This document shows, piece by piece, positions 50,302-63,669 of a DNA stretch of 64,000 nt; the stretch's first letter is position 1, and every line of letters begins with the position of its first letter. The stretch is taken from the NCBI GenBank assembly GCA_965218295.1, contig CBDCKN010000009.1:64001-128000 (forward strand), in the 5' to 3' direction. The notes under the pieces were generated by a model, which made no database searches, had not been told where the DNA came from, and saw nothing but the letters and a program-made list of their open reading frames with translations. The DNA comes from Longimicrobiales bacterium (GTDB lineage Bacteria > Gemmatimonadota > Gemmatimonadetes > Longimicrobiales > Gaopeijiaceae). Both the position numbers and the translations under genes were made by a program.

Positions 50302-51480
50302 ATGGCCGTAAAAATCCGACTTCGTCGCATGGGCCGTAAGAAGCAGGCCCATTTCCGCATCGTGGTGGCCGACTCCGCAGCTCCGCGAGATGGCCGCTTC
50401 GTCGAGACGCTTGGGTACTACAAGCCTCTGACGAGCCCGGCCCGCCTCGTGGTGGACATCGACAAGGCCGACGCGTGGATCGCCAAGGGTGCCGAGCCCA
50501 CCGACACCGTCCGAACGCTGCTGAACAAGGCCCGCAAGGGTGGTGATACTTCCGTGGCTCTCGGCGAGCTCGATCCGGAGGAGGCGAAGGCTCTGAAGAC
50601 CGCTGCCCTTGCGGAGCGCCGGAAAGCAGAGGCGAAGGCCCGCGAGGAGGCGGCGGCAGCCGAGGTGGCCCAGGAGGCCGCGACTGCGGCGGCTGCCGAG
50701 CTCGACGCCGCCGAGGCCGACGTCGAGGCTGCTGAAGACGACGCACCCGAGGCCGAAGCTGCCGAAGAGGAGGCTCCCGAGGCGGAAGCCGAGGAGGAGC
50801 CCGCCGCCGAGGAGGAGTCGGAGCCCGAGGCTGAGGCAACCGAAGAGGAAGCCCCCGAGGCGGAAGCCGAGGAGGAGCCCGCCACCGAGGAGGAGTCGGA
50901 GCCCGAGGCCGAGGCTACCGAAGAGGAAGCCCCCGAGGCGGAAGCCGAGGAAGAGCCGGTCGCCGAAGAGGAGTCGGAGCCCGAGGCTGAGGCAACCGAA
51001 GAGGAAGCCCCCGAGGCCGAAGCCGAGGAGGAGCCCGCTGCCGAAGAGGAGTCGGAGCCCGAGGCCGAGGCTGGCGAAGAGGAAGCCCCCGAGGCCGAAG
51101 CCGAGGAAGAGCCCGCCGCCGAAGAGGAGTCGGAGCCCGAGGCCGAGGCTGCCGAAGAGGAAGCCCCCGAGGCGGAAGCCGAGGAAGAGCCGGTCGCCGA
51201 AGAGGAGTCGGAGCCCGAGGTCGAGGCAACCGAAGAGGAAGCCCCCGAGGCGGAAGCCGAGGAGGAGCCCACGGCCGAAGAGGAGTCGGAGCCCGAGGCC
51301 GAGGCTGCCGAAGAGGAAGCCCCCGAGGCGGAAGCCGAGGAAGAGCCGGTCGCCGAAGAGGAGTCGGAGCCCGAGGTCGAGGCAACCGAAGAGGAAGCCC
51401 CCGAGGCGGAAGCCGAGGAGGAGCCCACGGCCGAGGCCGACACCGAGGCCGAAGAGGACGAGGAGAAGAAGTCGGAGTGA
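50302..51480 (+). CDS. rpsP: 30S ribosomal protein S16 with a long acidic repeat tail
   Basis: MAVKIRLRRMG...PRDGRFVETLGYY...GAEPTDTV; ffh-rpsP-rimM-trmD-rplS synteny. Confidence 0.96.
   Translation: MAVKIRLRRMGRKKQAHFRIVVADSAAPRDGRFVETLGYYKPLTSPARLVVDIDKADAWIAKGAEPTDTVRTLLNKARKGGDTSVALGELDPEEAKALKTAALAERRKAEAKAREEAAAAEVAQEAATAAAAELDAAEADVEAAEDDAPEAEAAEEEAPEAEAEEEPAAEEESEPEAEATEEEAPEAEAEEEPATEEESEPEAEATEEEAPEAEAEEEPVAEEESEPEAEATEEEAPEAEAEEEPAAEEESEPEAEAGEEEAPEAEAEEEPAAEEESEPEAEAAEEEAPEAEAEEEPVAEEESEPEVEATEEEAPEAEAEEEPTAEEESEPEAEAAEEEAPEAEAEEEPVAEEESEPEVEATEEEAPEAEAEEEPTAEADTEAEEDEEKKSE
50746..51435 (+). repeat. 78-bp (26-aa) tandem repeat, 8 full copies plus 1 partial
   Basis: unit PEAEAxEEEAPEAEAEEEPxAEEESE. 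Confidence 0.95.
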
Positions 51481-54071: not shown

Positions 54072-55665
54072 CTAGGGCGACGGGTCCACGTCAAGGGGTT
54101 CCGAGGAGGAGATCGGCTCAGGAGCATCCGTGAAGAGAGTCAGCGACCCCTCGCAGACGTCGTCGGCGTCCAAGATCTCGATTTCTACCTCCGGCAGGGA
54201 CGACGAGGAGAACCCGTCCAACCTTGTCACGGATAGGACCTCAAACGCCACCGTTCCCAGGTTGTCTCCCTTGAGACTCCCGTCCAGTGGGTCGTAGTTG
54301 ATGGAGACGTCGCCTTTGTAGACCACAGCGCAGACCCGCTGTCCCACCAACTGCTTGAGCCCCGTCGCCCGCAAGGGAGTGACGTCCGGAATCTTGTCCA
54401 GCAGGGCCTCTGGATCACCCCCAGAGCCCAAGCCTGGACCGGCATCGAGGTAATTGCGCAGGCCATCATCAGGTGTCGAACCCCAGGAGTCCGGGATCGT
54501 CTTTACCGCAAACCATCCCTCATCGCCGACTTCGCCCGTATGCAGGGTGATCGTCAGACCAACGTTAGCTCCAGCGAAGAAGGGGAGCGGGGTCCGCAAC
54601 CCGATGTCGGTCATGTCTTCGTTCACGTCCGCCTCGTCGAAGGAGTTCGGCGGGCTGCCCTTGCCGATGCTCTCCTCGTCGATGATCAGGAACGTGGACG
54701 CCGCGCTCGACGGGCAGGCCTCGAGCGTCACGGAGGTTGTTCCGGAAGCTCCGGCCGTGGGCAGTTCGACCACCGTGCCCGATAGGCCAGGATCTCCGCC
54801 ACCGACATCGAGGGTCGTCGGATCGAATATCCCGCAGCCGAATACCTTGATCCGGCCGCCGCCGCCGCCGCCACCACCGGTGCCAAACGTTACGAAGAAG
54901 GGAGGACCGCCAGGACCGTCCAGGCCCGATCCGGCCGCGCCACCCTTCGCCTCGATGACCCCAGTGACGTTGAGCGAGCCATCCAGCAAGATGCCTCCAC
55001 CGGATCCGCCGCCGCCGCCGCCACCGGGGGTGCCGTCAGCGCCGACCACTCCGGACGCTCTAATAGTTCCGCTCACGGCGATGGCGTTCGCGATGATCGT
55101 TATGGCCCCACCTCCGGCTCCGCCAACTCCAGGTCCGGACCTGGCGCTACCGCCAGCCGAGCCCATTCGGATGTCTTTCGAGACGGGGTCGCCATAGGGC
55201 ATCCCTCCATCTGCCACCTCCGCGAAGACCTTTCCGCCCTTGCCCCCGAGTCCTCCATACCCTCCGCCGCCGCCTCCCAGGCTGGTGAAAACCTCTGACG
55301 GGCCGTCGTCGCCGACACCGTCAAGGGCACCGCCAGCACCAGTGGCGTCTAACATACCCGCGATGATCACCTCATCAGCCTCAATAACCAAGGGAACGCC
55401 GGGATCGACGAAGACAGTTGCAGTGCTGGGAATTCGTGAACGTACGCACCCCGGTAAAGCTGCCGCTCAAGATATCACCATCCGTAGGCGTGAGGTCCAC
55501 CCCTCCCAGGTCGCCACCGGAGATTAGCGCTAGTAGCGGTGCCGTGATAGAGGGATGGTTTGCGTCAACCGTCCAATCGACGACGTCCGTAACGGTCTGC
55601 TCACACCCCAATACCGCTAGGGCGAGTACGATGGAAACGGCTTGAACCCGGTACTTCCGGGGCAT
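54072..55665 (-). pseudogene. Gly-rich secreted/lipoprotein gene interrupted by a +1 frameshift at about 55433
   Basis: SD AGGAGG, ATG at 55665 and lipobox AVLGC; removing one A from ACG-A-ATT joins ORF 55381-55665 to ORF 54072-55391. Confidence 0.7.
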
Positions 55666-56180: not shown

Positions 56181-57431
56181 TCAGCGTTCGGCCAGCAGCC
56201 CGAAGACCTCGTCCACCTGCTCCCAGCCCACCCTCATGAGGAAGTCGCTCCGCCGTCCGTAGGACTTGATTCCGAGGATGAAGATCCCGGGCTCGGGGTG
56301 CACGAGGGTCTCGGCTCCCAGGCTTGTCTGATCCAGGCAGTCTCCGCTACCGCCGCTTTGGGCCAGGAGGGCGGCCGCGAGCTTCATGGGACCCTGCGTG
56401 GCATAGCACTCGTGCACCTGGAGCTGCCGGTACAGGAGGTGATCTCCGACCTTCCCCGTGAGCGCCAGGATACGGTCGACGTCGAAGCACTCCACCTGGC
56501 CGTCGAGGGACCGCAGCTTGGCGCCGACTCGGGGAGACCCGTCGGGCGTGGCAGTGTCGATCGCCTCTCTCGCGGCCCGAGCCTCCCGCACCTTCAAGGC
56601 GTCGACCACGACCCCGGTGCGAACCCGGAGGCACGTTGGGGGATGGGTGGCCAGCGCGGCCCCCTCCTCGAGAAGAGCGGCCCGCTCCTCCAGCGGATCG
56701 TCCACATCGGGCTCCGGGACTTCGTGTCGCACGGCCCAGACGACTTCGGTCCCGGGGTACTTTTCGGCCAGCTTCACGAGGTCCACGACGGCCGTGGTAG
56801 CGGAGTGTCCTGAGCCCACCACCAGCACCGTGCGTCCCGCCCAGTTCTCAGGGTCGCCCGACACGTCCGGTATCTCACGGCTGATGGCTTCCGACGCGTG
56901 CCCTTCACCCGGAGCGGGGATGCCCCCGTCGCCCAGAGCGTTGGGCTCGGTGTTGCCGGTGCAGTCGATCACCACGTCGGCCTCCTCGGTCCACTCCCGG
57001 CCGGAGTCGTCCCGGAGGAGGAGTCGGAAGGCGTGTCGGCCCCGCTCGCCGGTGCCGATCTCCTCATGCTTGAGCAGGCCGGTGCGGCCCAGGCGCTCTA
57101 CGCGAACCCCGTATTTGATGTGCCCCGAGAGGGCCGAGAGAGCGCTGACGGGATCGAGTACCTTCTCTACCAGCTCCGCTCCCGTAGGGTACTCGGTCCC
57201 TTCGGGGACAGACTCGCCGGCCTCGTCCAGCGCCTGGCGCATCCGGGCCGAGACGTTGAGGTCCCAGGAGGTGAAGAGCCGGACGTGGCCCCAGTCGCGA
57301 ACGTGGCCCGCCGCCTGCGCCGCCGCCTCGTAGACGGTGAAGGGGTATCGGGCGACGGCTGCGGCCAGGGCGGCCTCGAGGCCGATGGGACCGCTCCCCA
57401 GGATCGCTATCCGTGGCTTGGATGTGGTCAT
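56181..57431 (-). CDS. FAD/NAD(P)-dependent oxidoreductase (flavin monooxygenase-like, resembles ars-associated flavoproteins)
   Basis: ILGSGPIG (FAD), WGHVRLF, DCTG, VVGSGHSA (NADPH), HPEPG..ILG.KSYGR. Confidence 0.8.
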   Translation of the reverse strand: MTTSKPRIAILGSGPIGLEAALAAAVARYPFTVYEAAAQAAGHVRDWGHVRLFTSWDLNVSARMRQALDEAGESVPEGTEYPTGAELVEKVLDPVSALSALSGHIKYGVRVERLGRTGLLKHEEIGTGERGRHAFRLLLRDDSGREWTEEADVVIDCTGNTEPNALGDGGIPAPGEGHASEAISREIPDVSGDPENWAGRTVLVVGSGHSATTAVVDLVKLAEKYPGTEVVWAVRHEVPEPDVDDPLEERAALLEEGAALATHPPTCLRVRTGVVVDALKVREARAAREAIDTATPDGSPRVGAKLRSLDGQVECFDVDRILALTGKVGDHLLYRQLQVHECYATQGPMKLAAALLAQSGGSGDCLDQTSLGAETLVHPEPGIFILGIKSYGRRSDFLMRVGWEQVDEVFGLLAER

Positions 57432-57442
57432 GATCGTGGGTC

Positions 57443-58432
57443 CTAGAACCTCGAGGCCGCCCGCTCCTTGGCCGGTAGAATCTCGAGGCAGGTGGTCCAC
57501 CATCCGCTGAGGATCGTCTCGACGAACTCCTCCGGAAGCTCCTCTCGGCGCATCTCGGCTGCGAGGGACTCATGATCGTACCTGAGGGGGATCGGCTCGA
57601 CGCCGAGTCCGCCGCCTTTCGCCAAACCGCCGCCGTCCGGTGATCCACCGTTCTCCGCCGAAAGGATGGCGTACCAGACGTTGGTGCGCCCGTCGTTGGC
57701 CGGTCGTCCGATGACGCCCACGTTCACCACGTCCCGACCCGAAGGGAGGCGCCGGTGCCACTGAAGACCTGTGTGGGTGCAGAGAATCCCGTCGCAGCGG
57801 TTCTCGCCACACAATATCTCCAGGTAGGGCGTGGACGAGGTCGACGCGAAGAGGAACTCGTTGACCTGCCTTGGAGACCCGTGGACGAGGAGTAGCTCTG
57901 CCTCCCCGACCGCGACCCGGCGCCTGTTGGGGAGCTCCCCCATGTACGCTTTGAACTCGGGAGAGCAGCGACGCTCGGTGTAGCCGTACGAAAGGGCGGC
58001 GAAGTGGTTGTCCCGCGGGTCGGTGTATCCACAGTTGCAGTCCCCCCGGTCGGCGGCCAGGGACTGCTCGTAGTTCCCCTGGATGGACCGCACACCGCCT
58101 GATTCCAGGAGAGGCCAGATCGCTTCCGGGTTCGGCCCGAAGCCCCCGAGATCCCCGAGACAATACACGGCCTCGGCCCCACGTCGGCGGGCGTCCTCCA
58201 ATAGGGCTTCAAGGCCGAAGTGGTTGTTGTAGACCCCTCCGAAGACGGCGATCCGCCCGTATGGACCCTCCACGGGGGTCGCATCGTCGGCCGGGGTCAG
58301 GTACTCCTCCACGGCAGACCGACGGCCCTCCTCGGAGAGGGTCCGACCGAAGCGCGTGGTCGCGGCTCGGAAGTCCTCCAGGGGAACCAGACGCTCACCC
58401 CAGGTGGCCATTCCCTTCTGGGCGTTGGTCAT
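57443..58432 (-). CDS. calcineurin-like metallophosphoesterase-fold protein with degenerate metal motifs
   Basis: FGGVYNN, CLGDLGG, QGNYE, VHGSP, CTHTG, NVGVIG; DCNCGY motif. Confidence 0.8.
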   Translation of the reverse strand: MTNAQKGMATWGERLVPLEDFRAATTRFGRTLSEEGRRSAVEEYLTPADDATPVEGPYGRIAVFGGVYNNHFGLEALLEDARRRGAEAVYCLGDLGGFGPNPEAIWPLLESGGVRSIQGNYEQSLAADRGDCNCGYTDPRDNHFAALSYGYTERRCSPEFKAYMGELPNRRRVAVGEAELLLVHGSPRQVNEFLFASTSSTPYLEILCGENRCDGILCTHTGLQWHRRLPSGRDVVNVGVIGRPANDGRTNVWYAILSAENGGSPDGGGLAKGGGLGVEPIPLRYDHESLAAEMRREELPEEFVETILSGWWTTCLEILPAKERAASRF

Positions 58433-59328
58433 GTCCGGCAGCTCACCCCGTAGACGTGGCAGGTCCAGCACGCCTGGTGGTCGAGGGGAAAGTCACCGAG
58501 GGTGTCGGCCAGGCGCTCCCCCATCCGACCCGAGGGCTCGTTTACCAGGATGGGGCATACCCAGACGCCCTGGTCGGTGACCATGCGACACGAGGAGCAC
58601 TGAAGGTGGCTCCACCCGTCCTCTGGAGTGTCCGCCGCCGAGAGCCTCTGCCAGCTCTCGTACGCGCCGGACCGCTCGGCCTCCGCTCCGAGGCGGAAGA
58701 CCGGCAGGACCTTGAGCCTGGGCCGTCTGATGCCTCGCCCGGCCAGGAGCTCCAGGAAGCGGGTGCGCCCCTGGTCGCTGGAGTTACCCTCGTGGACGTC
58801 GGTGACGGTGATAACCGGGTTGAGCCCGGCCTCCTCCGCGTTGAGGGCGCCCTCGAGAATCCGCTCGAACGTCCCCTCGCCCCGGATGGGATCGTTCGTC
58901 TCGGCGGTGTAGCCATCGAGGGAGATGCGGAGATCGAGGGAGTACTCGGAAGCGTCGGCCAACGCGGCCAGCCGACGGCAACGTTTCCCATCGAGGAGCA
59001 GGCCGTTGGTCAGGACCGTAGCGGGACCGACCTCGAGCGTCGCGGCGAGGATGGCCTCCATGTCACGGTTGATGAAGGGCTCTCCCCCCGTGAAGTAATA
59101 CTCCTTCACGCCCAACTCCACGGCCTCGTCGAGGTACGAGCGAACCGTCTCCAGGCTCAGGAGCTCGTGGGTGTGGTTCGTGGGGGAGCAGGAGATGAAA
59201 CAGTGGCTGCACGTGAGGTTGCAGAGGGTCCCGCCCACCTGGAACCACAGGGTGTCCAGAGACCGGAGGGCAACGGACGGGCTCACGGGGCCACCGGATT
59301 TAGCGTTAGCAGCAGTCGCCTGGCTCAC
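58429..59328 (-). CDS. radical SAM enzyme with a Cys-rich C-terminal (SPASM/twitch-like) region
   Basis: CNLTCSHC, FTGGEP, LTNG, ISLDG; C-terminal CSSC..CP..CWTC..C; alternative start GTG at 59286. Confidence 0.92.
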   Translation of the reverse strand: MSQATAANAKSGGPVSPSVALRSLDTLWFQVGGTLCNLTCSHCFISCSPTNHTHELLSLETVRSYLDEAVELGVKEYYFTGGEPFINRDMEAILAATLEVGPATVLTNGLLLDGKRCRRLAALADASEYSLDLRISLDGYTAETNDPIRGEGTFERILEGALNAEEAGLNPVITVTDVHEGNSSDQGRTRFLELLAGRGIRRPRLKVLPVFRLGAEAERSGAYESWQRLSAADTPEDGWSHLQCSSCRMVTDQGVWVCPILVNEPSGRMGERLADTLGDFPLDHQACWTCHVYGVSCRT

Positions 59329-60493
59329 AGCACGCCCCCTGAGGGTCCGTGGTCACGTCGTAGTCCATCCCCTTGGACTCCCTGGGATGCCGCGCCGTCG
59401 TGCGGGTGCAGTCGAAGGGCTCCGCCTCTTCCAACGGGATCTCGACCAACGGCTCGATGAAGTCGAAGTACTCCCTGTACGGCTCCCGGCCGTAGATGCG
59501 GAAGGTCTTGTCGCACACCGCGTATCGCTTCCCTCGTTCCATGCGGTGATCGTCGTCGTCGAGCACTTCCTTGAAGGGGCCCCGGTAGACCACCGCCGGC
59601 ATCCTCTCCCAGCAGGGGCCCTCCTTGCCCTTGAAGGCCTCGACGGTCACCGAGCGGAACTCGATTCCGTTCACCGTCTGCCAGGGCTCGGCCTGGCGCT
59701 CCCGGACGCGGATCCCGTAGAAGCCGACTTCTTCGAACGCCTCGAGGAATCCCTCCTCGGTGAGGGCCCCCGAGACACACCCGCTCCAGAGCTCCGCGTC
59801 CATCTGGAGCTCCTCAGGGACCGGCTCGTCGGAGGCGATGTCCGAGATGACCGCCCGTCCGCCCGTCCTCAGAACGCGGTGGATCTCCCTGAAGAGGTTC
59901 TGCTTCTGATCCGTCGCCACGAGGTTCAGGACGCAGTTCGAGACGACGACGTCGACCGACTCGTCGAGGACCAGGGGCTCCAGGAGCCGGAGGTCCGACA
60001 TCATCCGCTCGAGCTCGAGATAGTCCTCGGTGGTCGACACCGGATGCTCGCCCAGGCGCTCCTCCAGCCGCTCCAGATCGAGGGCGAGATCCTGGATGCG
60101 GCCCCGCCGGAACTCCACGTTGGCGTAGCCGATCCGCTCAGCGACGACAGGAGCGTTTCGACGGGCGACCTCCAGCATCTCGGGGGTCATGTCGACGCCG
60201 ATGACCTTGCCCGTCTGTCCCACCACCTGCGATGCGATGAAGCAGATCTTGCCTGTGCCGCTGCCCAGGTCGAGGACGGTCTCACCGGCCTTCAGATAGC
60301 GGCTGGGATCGCCGCAGCCGTAGTCCCGTTCGATGACCTCGTCCGGGATTGCCTCCAGGTACTTCGGATCGTAGTCCACGGGACAACAGAGGGCCGCGGC
60401 CTGGCCCTGTGCGGCGTCGGCGTAGCGATCCTGGACTGCGGTCTCCTGGGCGCCGGCGCTGGTCCTCTGCATCTGGCTGTCAGTCTCGATCAC
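59306..60493 (-). CDS. ArsM/AS3MT-like SAM-dependent methyltransferase with a Cys-rich C-terminal extension
   Basis: LCCP, YGCGDP, VLDLGSGTG, GVDMT, VSNCVLNL, WSGCVSGA; ends CCEPGDCC; GTG at 60493 with SD GAGGAG. Confidence 0.85.
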   Translation of the reverse strand: MIETDSQMQRTSAGAQETAVQDRYADAAQGQAAALCCPVDYDPKYLEAIPDEVIERDYGCGDPSRYLKAGETVLDLGSGTGKICFIASQVVGQTGKVIGVDMTPEMLEVARRNAPVVAERIGYANVEFRRGRIQDLALDLERLEERLGEHPVSTTEDYLELERMMSDLRLLEPLVLDESVDVVVSNCVLNLVATDQKQNLFREIHRVLRTGGRAVISDIASDEPVPEELQMDAELWSGCVSGALTEEGFLEAFEEVGFYGIRVRERQAEPWQTVNGIEFRSVTVEAFKGKEGPCWERMPAVVYRGPFKEVLDDDDHRMERGKRYAVCDKTFRIYGREPYREYFDFIEPLVEIPLEEAEPFDCTRTTARHPRESKGMDYDVTTDPQGACCEPGDCC

Positions 60494-60747: not shown

Positions 60748-60820
60748 GAGCCGGTAGCTCAGCTGGTAGAGCAACGGACTTTTAATTCGTAGGTCGCGGG
60801 TTCGAGACCCGCCCGGCTCA
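60748..60820 (+). tRNA. tRNA-Lys (anticodon UUU)
   Basis: acceptor stem GAGCCGG/CCGGCTC, D-arm TAGCTCAGCTGGTAGAGC, anticodon loop CT-TTT-AA, T-loop GGTTCGAG; no encoded CCA. Confidence 0.95.
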
Positions 60821-61016
60821 CTGCGAATATGTTGTAACATAAGGGATTTTCTCTGATGAGCGCCCGCTTGCCCCCCGTACGCTGGCGGGAGCCCCCAAGT
60901 TGACTGGTTTGGCCCTGCCCCTCACGTTATCCCAACCCGTCAAAGGGCCTTTGTTTTTCCTTCTATGAGGCCAGCGGTCACCACCGCACGCTTCCCGCAC
61001 GCATTAACATATCTGC

Positions 61017-62723
61017 ATGAAGACCATCGCCTCCCATCTGGCCACGCTGCTCACGGGGGAAACCAAATTGCGCCGGCAGCTCGCGCCGTTCGTGAAATAC
61101 GTGGTCCTCGTCGTCGCGGTCGTTTTGCTCTACGGCTGGCTGTTCCACGCGATCATGGCGCGGGAAGGTCAGGACCACTCGTGGTTCACGGGAGTCTATT
61201 GGGCGCTCACCGTGATGAGCACCCTCGGCTTCGGTGATATCACGTTCGAGAGCGACCTGGGCCGCGCCTTCAGCACCATCGTGCTGCTAACCGGCATGGT
61301 GCTGCTCCTCATCATCCTCCCGTTCCTCTTCATCCGAGTTGTATACGCCCCGTGGCTCGAGCAGCGGAGCCGCGGCCGCATCCGCTCGCTCCAGTCGGTG
61401 CCGGAAGGCCTCGCGGGTCACGTGCTGATTTGCGCCAACGATCCCATTGCACTCGGGCTCATCCGCCGCCTTCAACTGGCGGACGTGCCGGTCTATGTGA
61501 TCGAGCCCGACGCCGACCTTGCGATGCACATGCAGGATGTCGGCACGCCGGTCTTCATGGGCGAAATCGACTCCGTCGAGACCTACCGAGCCGCCCGCGC
61601 GGCGCAGGCTCGCCTCGTCCTGGCCAACGCGTCGGACACGGTCAACTCCAACATTGTCCTCACCGTACGCGAGCTGTCCGAATCGGTGCCGGTCGTTGCG
61701 CTGGCCGAAGTGGAAGACTCGATCGATGTGCTGGAGCTCAGCGGCGCCACGCACGTGCTGCCCCTCACGCACCAACTCGGCGAGCACCTCGCCAATCGGG
61801 TGAGCTCGGGGACGACGCACGCCAACCTGATCGGCAAGTTCCATGACCTGCTGCTCGCCGAGTTCCCAGTGCACAACACGCCGTTCCAGGGCCGGACCAT
61901 CCGGGACACACGGTTGCGCGAGTTTACCGGGGTCACAATCGTCGGGGTGTGGGAGCGTGGGCGGTTCCTGCCCGCGAGGCCGGATCTCGAGCTGTCGTCG
62001 CTCACCGTGCCGGTCGCTATCGGCACGTCCGAGCAGATCGCGGCGCTGGACGAAGTGCTCGCGATATACGACGCCAATCCGAATCCGGTGCTCATCCTCG
62101 GCGGTGGCAAGGTGGGGCGGGCCGCCGCTGCGGCCCTCAAGCGGCGGAAGATCCCCGTGCATATGGTGGAACGGAACCCGGAACTGGAGCCGCAAATCGC
62201 GAGCATTCCCGACCGGTTGTTTCTAGGCGACGCCGCCGACCGGCGCATACTTGACGCGGCGGGGATTGCCGAGACACCGTGCGTCCTGCTCACGACGCAC
62301 GACGATGCGATGAACGTCTACCTGACGGTGTACTGCCGGCGGCTCAATCCCGAAGCGCGTATCCTCACCCGGGTCACGCACGAACGGAACGTCGAGGCCA
62401 TCCAGCGCGCCGGCGCCGACTTCGTCTTGAGCTACGCGTCATTAGGGGTGCAGACGGTATACTCGATCGTGCAGGGACGGGAGCTCGTCGTGCTGGGTGG
62501 GGACGTTGGTCTCTTCTACGTGCCGCTCCCGCCGTCGCTCGCGGACAAGACGCTCGCCGACGCGGGGATCGGCGCGCATACTGGCCTGAACGTGATCGGC
62601 GTCCAGAAGGACGGGCAGATCGTCACGAATCTGCCGCCCGACCAGCGGTTAGTTAAGGGCTCAACGCTCGTCGCCCTGGGCAGCACGGAGCAGCGGGAGC
62701 GCTTCGGCGCCGTCTACGACTAG
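61017..62723 (+). CDS. 2-TM potassium channel with tandem RCK (TrkA-N/C) domains
   Basis: pore TVMSTLGFGD; ILGGGKVG; two TrkA-like modules. Confidence 0.9.
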   Translation: MKTIASHLATLLTGETKLRRQLAPFVKYVVLVVAVVLLYGWLFHAIMAREGQDHSWFTGVYWALTVMSTLGFGDITFESDLGRAFSTIVLLTGMVLLLIILPFLFIRVVYAPWLEQRSRGRIRSLQSVPEGLAGHVLICANDPIALGLIRRLQLADVPVYVIEPDADLAMHMQDVGTPVFMGEIDSVETYRAARAAQARLVLANASDTVNSNIVLTVRELSESVPVVALAEVEDSIDVLELSGATHVLPLTHQLGEHLANRVSSGTTHANLIGKFHDLLLAEFPVHNTPFQGRTIRDTRLREFTGVTIVGVWERGRFLPARPDLELSSLTVPVAIGTSEQIAALDEVLAIYDANPNPVLILGGGKVGRAAAAALKRRKIPVHMVERNPELEPQIASIPDRLFLGDAADRRILDAAGIAETPCVLLTTHDDAMNVYLTVYCRRLNPEARILTRVTHERNVEAIQRAGADFVLSYASLGVQTVYSIVQGRELVVLGGDVGLFYVPLPPSLADKTLADAGIGAHTGLNVIGVQKDGQIVTNLPPDQRLVKGSTLVALGSTEQRERFGAVYD

Positions 62724-62940
62724 CCGCAGGCGGCGGCGGGTGCGCCACGCGGTTCTCGAGGGGAATTCACAACCTATCTCGTCCAAGCTGTGCCAGAAGG
62801 GGAGAGGCCCGCGTCCGCTCTGTGCGCACTGGGTCTCCACAAAGGCGAACCCACGAAGGTGACCTCCGGGCAACGAAGTGGGTCCGGATGCCACTGGCGC
62901 TTGGAAGCCGGCGCGTCCACCCATGTCCCTTCAGTATGTG

Positions 62941-63474
62941 TCACCCATGTTGTTTCCTGTTCAACGACTTGGCTGACTCAGCTTCAGCGAATCCTGCGAT
63001 GACCACCACCATTACAGCTGCGACAAGGGACTTCAGCATCCCACCCATAACAAATGGGGCGACCCCCTGCCAGAATGCGGGGATCGCCCCCAGCATCCAG
63101 GCGAGCCTCAACCACCCAAGAGCTAGAATCAGCGCATGACCGCAGATCATGACGGCAATGGCAGGGCCGAACCGGCGGAGCAGGCCGCGGTCGGCTAGTC
63201 GACCGGCCGCTGCAGCTGCCGCGACAAAGCCCAGTAGATACCCGGCGGTCGGCCCTACGAAGTGCGCCCACCCCGACCCACCTTCGGCAAAGACTGGGAC
63301 GCCGATTCCGCCGACAATGAGGTAGGCGGTCAGTGTCAGGGCGCCGTCCCGAGCGCCGAGGAGGGAGCCGACGACCAGAACGGCCAGTGATTGCGCACTC
63401 TGGGGGACGTCCGCGCCTGGGATCGTCGCAGTCGCTCTCGCAGAGAGTGCAACCACCACAACACCAACGGTCAT
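62941..63474 (-). CDS. bioY: biotin transporter BioY
   Basis: VPQSAQSLAV, G.PVFA.G, GPTAGYLLGF, GVAPFV; N-terminus may be short. Confidence 0.85.
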   Translation of the reverse strand: MTVGVVVVALSARATATIPGADVPQSAQSLAVLVVGSLLGARDGALTLTAYLIVGGIGVPVFAEGGSGWAHFVGPTAGYLLGFVAAAAAAGRLADRGLLRRFGPAIAVMICGHALILALGWLRLAWMLGAIPAFWQGVAPFVMGGMLKSLVAAVMVVVIAGFAEAESAKSLNRKQHG

Positions 63475-63622
63475 CAGCGAGAGACGCCGGAGCCATCCGG
63501 TGTTCGGTGCGGTGGTGTGTGGTGGTGTTTCGATGCTCCCCCCTCAGCCCAGCAGCGGTTGGTGGGTGGCAGCCTAGTCCCAGTCCTCGGGTCGATCAAG
63601 TGGGCAAGAAAAGAGCTGAGGA

Positions 63623-63669
63623 GGACTTTTAATCCGTAGGTCGTGGGTTCGACACCCACCCGGCTCACT
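63623..63669 (+). repeat. attR-like duplicate of the tRNA-Lys 3' half
   Basis: ggacttttaatccgtaggtcgtgggttcgacacccacccggctcact; no 5' tRNA half upstream. Confidence 0.9.

Follow-up and report, generated by a model that had tools for sequence, protein, structure and literature searches.

A four-gene operon on the minus strand of the window, the 64,000-nucleotide stretch analysed here (positions 64001–128000 of contig CBDCKN010000009.1, from the 3.57-Mb, 90.7% complete genome of a Longimicrobiales bacterium), was read, with a probability of about one half, as encoding the first steps of an arsenosugar-type pathway, with an unnamed family of radical S-adenosylmethionine (SAM) enzymes in place of ArsS. 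The genes encode a long-form ArsM-like As(III) SAM methyltransferase (MT; 59306..60493, 395 aa), a radical SAM enzyme that is the likely ArsS replacement (RS; 58429..59328, 299 aa, PF04055), a remodelled metallophosphoesterase-fold protein predicted to be a Car1-like reductase of As(V) or methyl-As(V) (phosphoesterase-like, PE; 57443..58432, 329 aa, PF12850), and a flavoprotein using flavin adenine dinucleotide (FAD) and NAD(P)H, predicted to be an ArsV-like oxidase of trivalent methylarsenicals (FMO; 56181..57431, 416 aa, weak Pyr_redox_2 match). The cassette is real and conserved and is likely to perform arsenic chemistry, as a variant of ArsM/ArsS with an uncharacterised radical SAM family.

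RS occurs almost only in genomes that lack ArsS, and the synthesis of sugar-linked organic arsenic by a variant route is therefore likely. RS was twice as common as ArsS among the profiled members of the phylum (53 vs 26 of 301 genomes), so a survey based on arsS counts alone would overlook many likely makers of organoarsenicals on land and in the oceans; the carriers include many uncultured soil and marine bacteria. The remodelled PE provides a testable candidate for a methylarsenate/dimethylarsenate reductase, and to our knowledge no such bacterial enzyme has been identified; a literature search for one gave no paper. A literature search, which covered few subscription journals and main texts without supplements, found no publication on this cassette. 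In their available portions, two reviews (PMC12159101, PMC13598754) name only ArsS and ArsL as radical SAM enzymes that form C–As bonds.

The radical SAM family and its genome profile

The profile was computed over 301 genomes of the phylum and returned RS in 53, ArsS in 26, a PqqD-radical SAM-ArsM fusion in 21 (counted from a two-piece match pattern and read out in five loci) and the arsenosugar-associated glycosyltransferase TIGR04283 in 105. All 53 RS genomes carried TIGR04283 and none carried ArsS (0/53). At least one of RS, ArsS and the PqqD fusion was present in 96 of the 105 TIGR04283 genomes, vs 2 of the 196 without the transferase. Nine TIGR04283 genomes had none of the three types, and eight of these were searched: four held another related radical SAM gene ~3 kb from the transferase and two held one elsewhere, while G152 and G212 gave weak radical SAM matches. 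Genome G157, flagged as unpublished, was left out of this further search and enters as one count among the 105. Within the window's family, RS and TIGR04283 were both present in 32 genomes and both missing from 13, and the two genomes with TIGR04283 only have ArsS or the fusion; in genus g3, the corresponding figures were 17 and 2. Among the 80 closest genomes, TIGR04283 was found in 72 and ArsS in three. The genome under study has no detectable ArsS and holds a TIGR04283-DUF2064 cluster on a different contig, C17, which is likely to be the downstream half of the pathway. Besides the TIGR04283-DUF2064 fusion itself, this cluster (C17:63125-67330) encodes an oxidoreductase of dihydrolipoamide-dehydrogenase type and a membrane protein that, judged by inspection, looks like a TVP38/DUF547 fusion.

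Co-occurrence within the phylum extends to the other partners. A PE orthologue was never present without RS (34/34 genomes), and in a set of 52 genomes with RS, 26 had PE only, 15 ArsM only, seven both and four neither, so that PE, ArsM or both accompanied RS in 48/52; this split is carried mostly by three genera.

The RS sequence contains the CxxxCxxC motif at residues 36–43 and five further cysteines (C244, C258, C287, C290 and C297), a C-terminal pattern conserved in 77/77 and in 19/19 sequences. A profile of 36 RS relatives matched an ArsS end to end (probability 98%, 268 columns, 22% identity), with the five C-terminal cysteines aligned to ArsS cysteines, and the best of the 36 family members matched the ArsS model TIGR04167 with E 2.6e-22. 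RS itself scored 52.8 bits on that model, whose cut-off is 300, and its scores on all the other NCBIfam models listed were likewise below their cut-offs. Membership of ArsS was ruled out by this score, and membership of ArsL by the length of 299 aa, the end CWTCHVYGVSCRT and the missing RCCLKC tail; no ArsL model was among the listed NCBIfam matches. ArsL of arsinothricin biosynthesis has 428 aa, and the available portions of two preprints describe a ~430-aa ArsL with a C-terminal RCCLKC that binds arsenic (bioRxiv 10.1101/2024.02.01.577332; bioRxiv 10.64898/2026.04.29.721666). An earlier note, made from the letters of the window, had suspected a pairing different from both ArsM + ArsS and ArsL + ArsM, which is borne out in that RS is neither ArsS nor ArsL.

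The family comprised 116 clusters at 50% identity, collected at E up to 1e-30. The AlphaFold model of RS had a mean predicted local distance difference test score (pLDDT) of 93.6, with SkfB and BlsE as the nearest folds; when sequences and folds were compared with the PDB, none of RS, PE and FMO had a close match among solved structures. In a quick tree of 60 rows, RS and ArsS fell on the same side of a branch with a Shimodaira–Hasegawa-like approximate likelihood ratio test (SH-aLRT) support of 92. The window's RS was nested among Thermoanaerobaculia (support 99), apart from the usual copy of its own family, and an older transfer is therefore likely as the origin of this gene.

Of the known systems, ArsM + ArsS, as in Synechocystis PCC 6803 (TIGR04167 with TIGR04282/TIGR04283), is the closest in outline: both combine an ArsM with a radical SAM enzyme, both have TIGR04282/TIGR04283 transferase partners, linked or unlinked, and RS shares the full-length profile match and the five aligned cysteines with ArsS. 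The differences are the 53/300 score, the ~22% identity, the near absence of ArsS from RS genomes, the presence of the remodelled PE and FMO, and an MT of the long arsinothricin-type form. According to the available portion of PMC13598754, ArsS converts trivalent dimethylarsenic, DMAs(III), to DDMAA (5'-deoxy-5'-dimethylarsinoyl-adenosine) by adenosylation.

Two other radical SAM types were seen in comparable positions. Loci L166-L173 (e.g. L168:8151-10682) encode uncharacterised PqqD-radical SAM-ArsM fusions of ~840 aa, which are the third kind of enzyme in the position of ArsS. They resemble RS as a radical SAM beside TIGR04283/DUF2064 but form a separate clade from RS in the quick tree, and the part of them that could be aligned lacks the C-terminal cysteine pattern of RS and ArsS. 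Near the L168 fusion, methylthioadenosine phosphorylase-like and adenine phosphoribosyltransferase-like genes were identified by inspection, whose products might remove the adenine of DDMAA. In L220-L222, yet another radical SAM type, the fourth, lies beside TIGR04283 and DUF2064, together with acyl-CoA-dehydrogenase-like and binding-protein-like genes, also named by inspection.

Conservation of the cassette and its partner proteins

Locus counts were taken over the best 80 of 125 confirmed relatives, mostly acidobacterial. PE was present in 78 of these RS loci, FMO in 70 (three of the ten loci without it lie at contig ends) and MT in 31, with all four genes in 28. The earlier note had set beforehand, as a refutation test, that the four genes might fail to co-occur in other genomes; they co-occur widely, and the proposal therefore withstands this test, although a survey for a conserved quartet, as it had asked, recovered the complete set in only those 28 loci and no MT in 49. 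The core is therefore RS-PE(-FMO), with the long MT optional. Where MT was present, it was adjacent in 21 loci and separated in ten, nine of them by a PstSCAB-like importer, which was found in 11/80 loci overall; a DUF2064 match was found in 29/80, 22 of these with MT. An MT orthologue was encoded elsewhere in two of the 49 genomes without a linked copy and absent from 47. The idea that MT-less loci come from ArsM-free genomes was wrong for these close relatives, as 39 of the 47 carry a short ArsM of the usual kind that scores above the cut-off.

Fusions of RS with all three partner proteins also occur. A search for long proteins returned 33, of which three more distant radical SAM proteins were left uncounted; among the remaining 30 with the RS domain (P0394-P0423), 21 were fused to ArsM, seven to FMO and two to PE. 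The earlier view of the operon as one for organoarsenicals thus stands in part: the arsenic link is supported independently for three of the genes and through fusions and genome profile for RS, whereas a self-contained four-step pathway is not supported, given the loss of MT from 49/80 loci, and from 47 of those genomes, and the unlinked TIGR04283 in every carrier of the phylum. A plasmid of the cultured Roseomonas haemaphysalidis holds a related cluster with RS (38%), a remodelled PE (34%), TIGR04282, a family 2 glycosyltransferase (GT2) and a PhnD/E/C-type importer. With four small, predicted-soluble proteins and this cultured relative at hand, the question is directly testable. A second radical SAM gene of ~460 aa recurs in the clusters, as in L236:8547-9926 (weak TrsS/Tes-like match) and L227:3906-5279.

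All the cysteine motifs read earlier in MT (LCCP, YGCG, SNCV and SGCV, and the tail with CCEPGDCC) are present, and they were conserved in 23–29 orthologues, out of at most 29 whose sequences cover the positions concerned. The best NCBIfam match of MT was arsinothricin ArsM (NF040538, 355 bits vs a cut-off of 500), followed by PRK11873 (210/263 bits) and arsenosugar ArsM (NF038099, 127/400), so that the placement sought by the earlier note put MT nearest to arsinothricin ArsM, yet below every curated ArsM cut-off in this search. The model match is split because of an insertion of ~40 aa. Against arsenic methyltransferases of the PDB, MT gave E 7e-36, and its YGCG, SNC and fourth cysteine aligned with a solved arsenic methyltransferase. 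Its cysteines 36(/37)/60/187/239 are spaced 24-127-52, exactly as residues 30/54/181/233 of the ArsM of Burkholderia gladioli GSRB05, whose arsinothricin cluster arsQML differs in that the operon here has no ArsQ exporter and does not lie in an ars resistance operon. In the accessible part of PMC8552651, four conserved cysteines are given as required for catalysis in most ArsM enzymes, and B. gladioli ArsM is described as acting on hydroxyarsinothricin (AST-OH). MT is thus likely to be an ArsM-like As(III) methyltransferase, as predicted from its sequence. In genome G066, an MT orthologue (59%) adjoins a true ArsS. Elsewhere in the genome under study, a short arsM broken by a frameshift, which may be an assembly error or mark a pseudogene, comes after the gene of a MarR-like regulator (C15:218070-219459), and a second broken methyltransferase fragment was found at C3:31337-31585.

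PE has a fold like SapH/3rqz and lacks an intact binuclear phosphoesterase site (DxH, GD, GN, H, GHxH), with three metal ligands lost. The DxH motif is changed to G66-x-Y68 (the new motif was matched in 74/85 relatives) and GHxH to H220-x-G222 (at least 77/85), while D94, N120, H184 and H220 were invariant in 26 sequences. In the phosphoesterase fold, loss of DxH and of the last histidine of GHxH would remove one of the two metals. The part of PMC9807832 available to us describes the DxH ligands of the fold as metal-binding. A CxC pair and a WWTTC motif were present in 85/85 PE relatives, and C132/C134 of the pair fall at the positions of C74/C76 in a homologue that a Pedobacter (Bacteroidota) ars operon encodes. 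As stated in the accessible sections of PMC12124457, phosphoesterase genes adjoin arsM, and Car1, of Rufibacter tibetensis, is an As(V) reductase that needs Cys74 and Cys76. Plasmid homologues of PE (27–32% identity) lay in ars operons in 4/4 loci opened (H2, H4, H11 and H21, chosen among 30 matches listed). PE shares with Car1 the metallophosphoesterase fold and the position of the CxC pair, and differs from the Car1 type by ~30% identity, the replaced DxH and last GHxH histidine, the extra invariant WWTTC, an N-terminal extension, and its tie to RS rather than to arsR/acr3. We infer a redox enzyme with room for methylated arsenate. PE had earlier been proposed to perform a tailoring step; judged by these residues, it looks more like an upstream Car1-type As(V) reductase than a tailoring hydrolase.

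FMO was compared with plasmid proteins, of which 107 records covered at least 80% of the query, with 31–35% identity among the 30 listed. Four full-length homologues chosen among these 30 were opened (H32, H33, H43 and H46), and 4/4 lay in ars operons beside arsK, arsN1 or a major facilitator superfamily (MFS) gene. FMO aligned over its full length with these flavoproteins of arsR-flavoprotein-arsK/MFS and arsN1 operons but lacks their Cys-rich tail. The layout of ArsV operons is reportedly arsR-arsV-arsK. ArsV, a flavin monooxygenase, is named in the available part of PMC11719878, whose reference list includes a study of it by Zhang and colleagues from 2022, and the likeness to it is one of context: no ArsV-named NCBIfam model matched FMO, nor two ars-operon homologues searched likewise. 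FMO is therefore predicted, with this qualification, to be an ArsV-like oxidase of trivalent methylarsenicals.

Proposed route and rival explanations

The anatomy and conservation of the genes, their cysteine patterns and fusions, the genome profile and the ars-operon context of the homologues were read directly; from them we infer the substrates, the products and the order of steps as follows. With its CxC pair, PE would reduce arsenate, or scavenged methyl- or dimethylarsenate, to trivalent arsenic, and methylation of As(III) by the long ArsM would yield DMAs(III). RS would then join a 5'-deoxyadenosyl radical to DMAs(III) and so, like ArsS, produce DDMAA, which the TIGR04283/DUF2064 transferases of contig C17 would convert to dimethylarsinoyl-riboside. 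FMO would re-oxidise escaping toxic DMAs(III) or trivalent methylarsenic, MAs(III), or the trivalent product. An upstream reductase and methylase, with an oxidase as safety valve, would fit RS in the ArsS slot.

Several observations weigh against this arsenosugar-type reading. Several unrelated radical SAM models give RS a higher score than the ArsS model does, the identity between RS and ArsS is no more than ~22%, and in the quick tree ArsS has a long branch that was flagged as unreliable. The mutual exclusion of RS and ArsS denotes an interchangeable role and not the same reaction, and three of the 80 closest genomes hold both. Related genomes are not independent of one another, and the Fisher p-values for the profile therefore overstate the association. 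There was no ArsM match in 30/52 RS genomes, and neither PE nor ArsM in four. MT is closest to an arsinothricin ArsM, which methylates after C–As bond formation. PE has lost one metal site, whereas Car1, reportedly described by Shen and colleagues in 2024, is said to be binuclear and to couple As(V) reduction to thioredoxin. Finally, the arsenosugar label of TIGR04282/TIGR04283 is NCBI's name, and a literature search on the two families found no paper testing their arsenosugar role.

The main rival, close to the idea of the earlier note, is an arsinothricin-like order: RS would act first and alkylate As(III) or MAs(III) with a radical from SAM, adenosyl or another; this bulky arsenical would be methylated by the long ArsM, and FMO would oxidise the result to an undescribed pentavalent compound. 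This order is unlikely, although it is the strongest competitor: MT matches arsinothricin ArsM best, with exactly the same cysteine spacing and the insertion, and B. gladioli ArsM has the AST-OH activity cited above; the last three of the five RS C-terminal cysteines might bind As(III) in the manner of the ArsL tail, and RS has partners of its own, PE and FMO, neither of which was seen beside ArsS in the ArsS loci opened. However, RS has no RCCLKC tail, and its association with TIGR04283, together with its avoidance of ArsS, points to the same pathway slot; moreover, MT is dispensable, with short ArsM in 39 of the 47 genomes lacking it, and its orthologue also pairs with ArsS. Rather doubtful, and offered tentatively, is a reading in which PE, remodelled to a single metal, would be a dedicated methyl/dimethylarsenate reductase that harvests pentavalent dimethylarsenic, DMAs(V), through Pst/Phn-type importers in ArsM-less bacteria, RS a third family forming C–As bonds, and the product something other than a known arsenosugar; the split among the 52 RS genomes, 26 of them with PE and no ArsM, fits such a harvest but comes mostly from three genera.

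The remaining explanations are less likely than an arsinothricin-order product. Salvage or breakdown, with PE reducing imported methylarsenates, arsenosugars or their phosphates, RS cleaving the C–As bond and FMO detoxifying the trivalent fragment, would suit the Pst- and Phn-type importers within the cluster and the 30/52 RS genomes without an ArsM match; it is improbable in view of the 21 RS fusions to an intact four-cysteine ArsM, a biosynthetic partner, and of the placement of RS in the slot of ArsS, a bond-forming enzyme. Similarly improbable is a cassette that handles antimony, selenium or a reduced-phosphorus compound with recruited ars-like parts. There is no ArsR, Acr3 or ArsP by the operon and no Acr3 or ArsP was found in the genome at its 90.7% completeness, ArsS and related ArsM models are labelled selenoprotein, and the importers are phosphate/phosphonate-like, but the four-cysteine ArsM signature, the Car1-type CxC and the ars-operon context of 8/8 opened homologues all speak for arsenic. 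We give the least credence to a plain resistance cassette of reductase, methylase and oxidase, with RS an unrelated or maturation neighbour: PE, MT and FMO each have resistance-type relatives, yet RS is the constant member, without which a PE orthologue never occurs, it fuses to all three partners, and the operon has neither efflux pump nor ArsR. The arsenosugar-type front end with RS in place of ArsS is accordingly the reading we prefer.

Genomic setting

The four open reading frames (ORFs) are tightly packed, as had been noted, with an ATGA overlap between RS and PE and an 11-nt gap between PE and FMO; RS may start at GTG 59328, which overlaps the MT end, or at GTG 59286. The window contains none of the arsR, arsC, arsB, acr3 and arsP genes, in keeping with the earlier reading, as no HTH_5, PF03960, PF01451, ArsB, Acr3 or ArsP match was found inside it. 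A promoter/terminator scan gave nothing above chance. The closest named relative, also of the Longimicrobiales (Gemmatimonadota), has the same genes at 87–95% identity.

Upstream of the operon and divergent from it lies a tRNA-Lys(ttt) gene (60748..60821, plus strand, ARAGORN), and a 47-bp attachment site (att)-like repeat of its 3' part follows at 63623..63669 (plus strand; blastn 91.5% over 47 bp). The operon had been placed in an accessory region beside a tRNA integration site; the tRNA-Lys is indeed such a site, and the operon lies outside the island. The repeat bounds a K+-channel/BioY segment on the 3' side of the tRNA, with the operon on the 5' side, and the GC content at third codon positions (GC3) of the operon, 0.82–0.89, is core-like, as in purA/ffh/trmD/rnhB. 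The position beside the tRNA is kept in three relatives (L031, L032 and L033; 73–94% nucleotide identity). Cargo of a tRNA island was therefore ruled out by the repeat on the other side, the core-like GC and GC3, and the position kept in relatives. The bounded segment at the tRNA-Lys 3' end (60822-63669) encodes a TrkA-type K+ channel (61017-62723) and BioY (62941-63474), and in L031 the same tRNA repeat lies 8 kb away with different cargo.

In loci L039-L110, the opposite strand upstream carries genes for a type III polyketide synthase (PKS), an isoprenylcysteine carboxyl methyltransferase (ICMT)-like methyltransferase, an acyl carrier protein (ACP)-like protein, an AMP-binding ligase and an FAD monooxygenase; the cluster adjoins the cassette in the majority of Thermoanaerobaculia loci, and a type III PKS match occurred in 62/80 loci. 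A link to this type III PKS/fatty acyl-AMP ligase (FAAL) lipid cluster was set aside as Thermoanaerobaculia synteny, the cluster being on the other strand and not beside the Gemmatimonadota loci, and no type III PKS of this kind was found in the genome under study; an arsenolipid link of the cassette is conceivable.

Further along the window, a 439-aa ORF with a Gly-rich N-terminal part (54072-55391, minus strand, GC3 0.73) gave no Pfam or NCBIfam match and sits in a stretch that varies among relatives. A ribosomal protein S16-like gene, named by inspection (50302-51480, plus strand), has a very long acidic repeat tail and is also present in L031.

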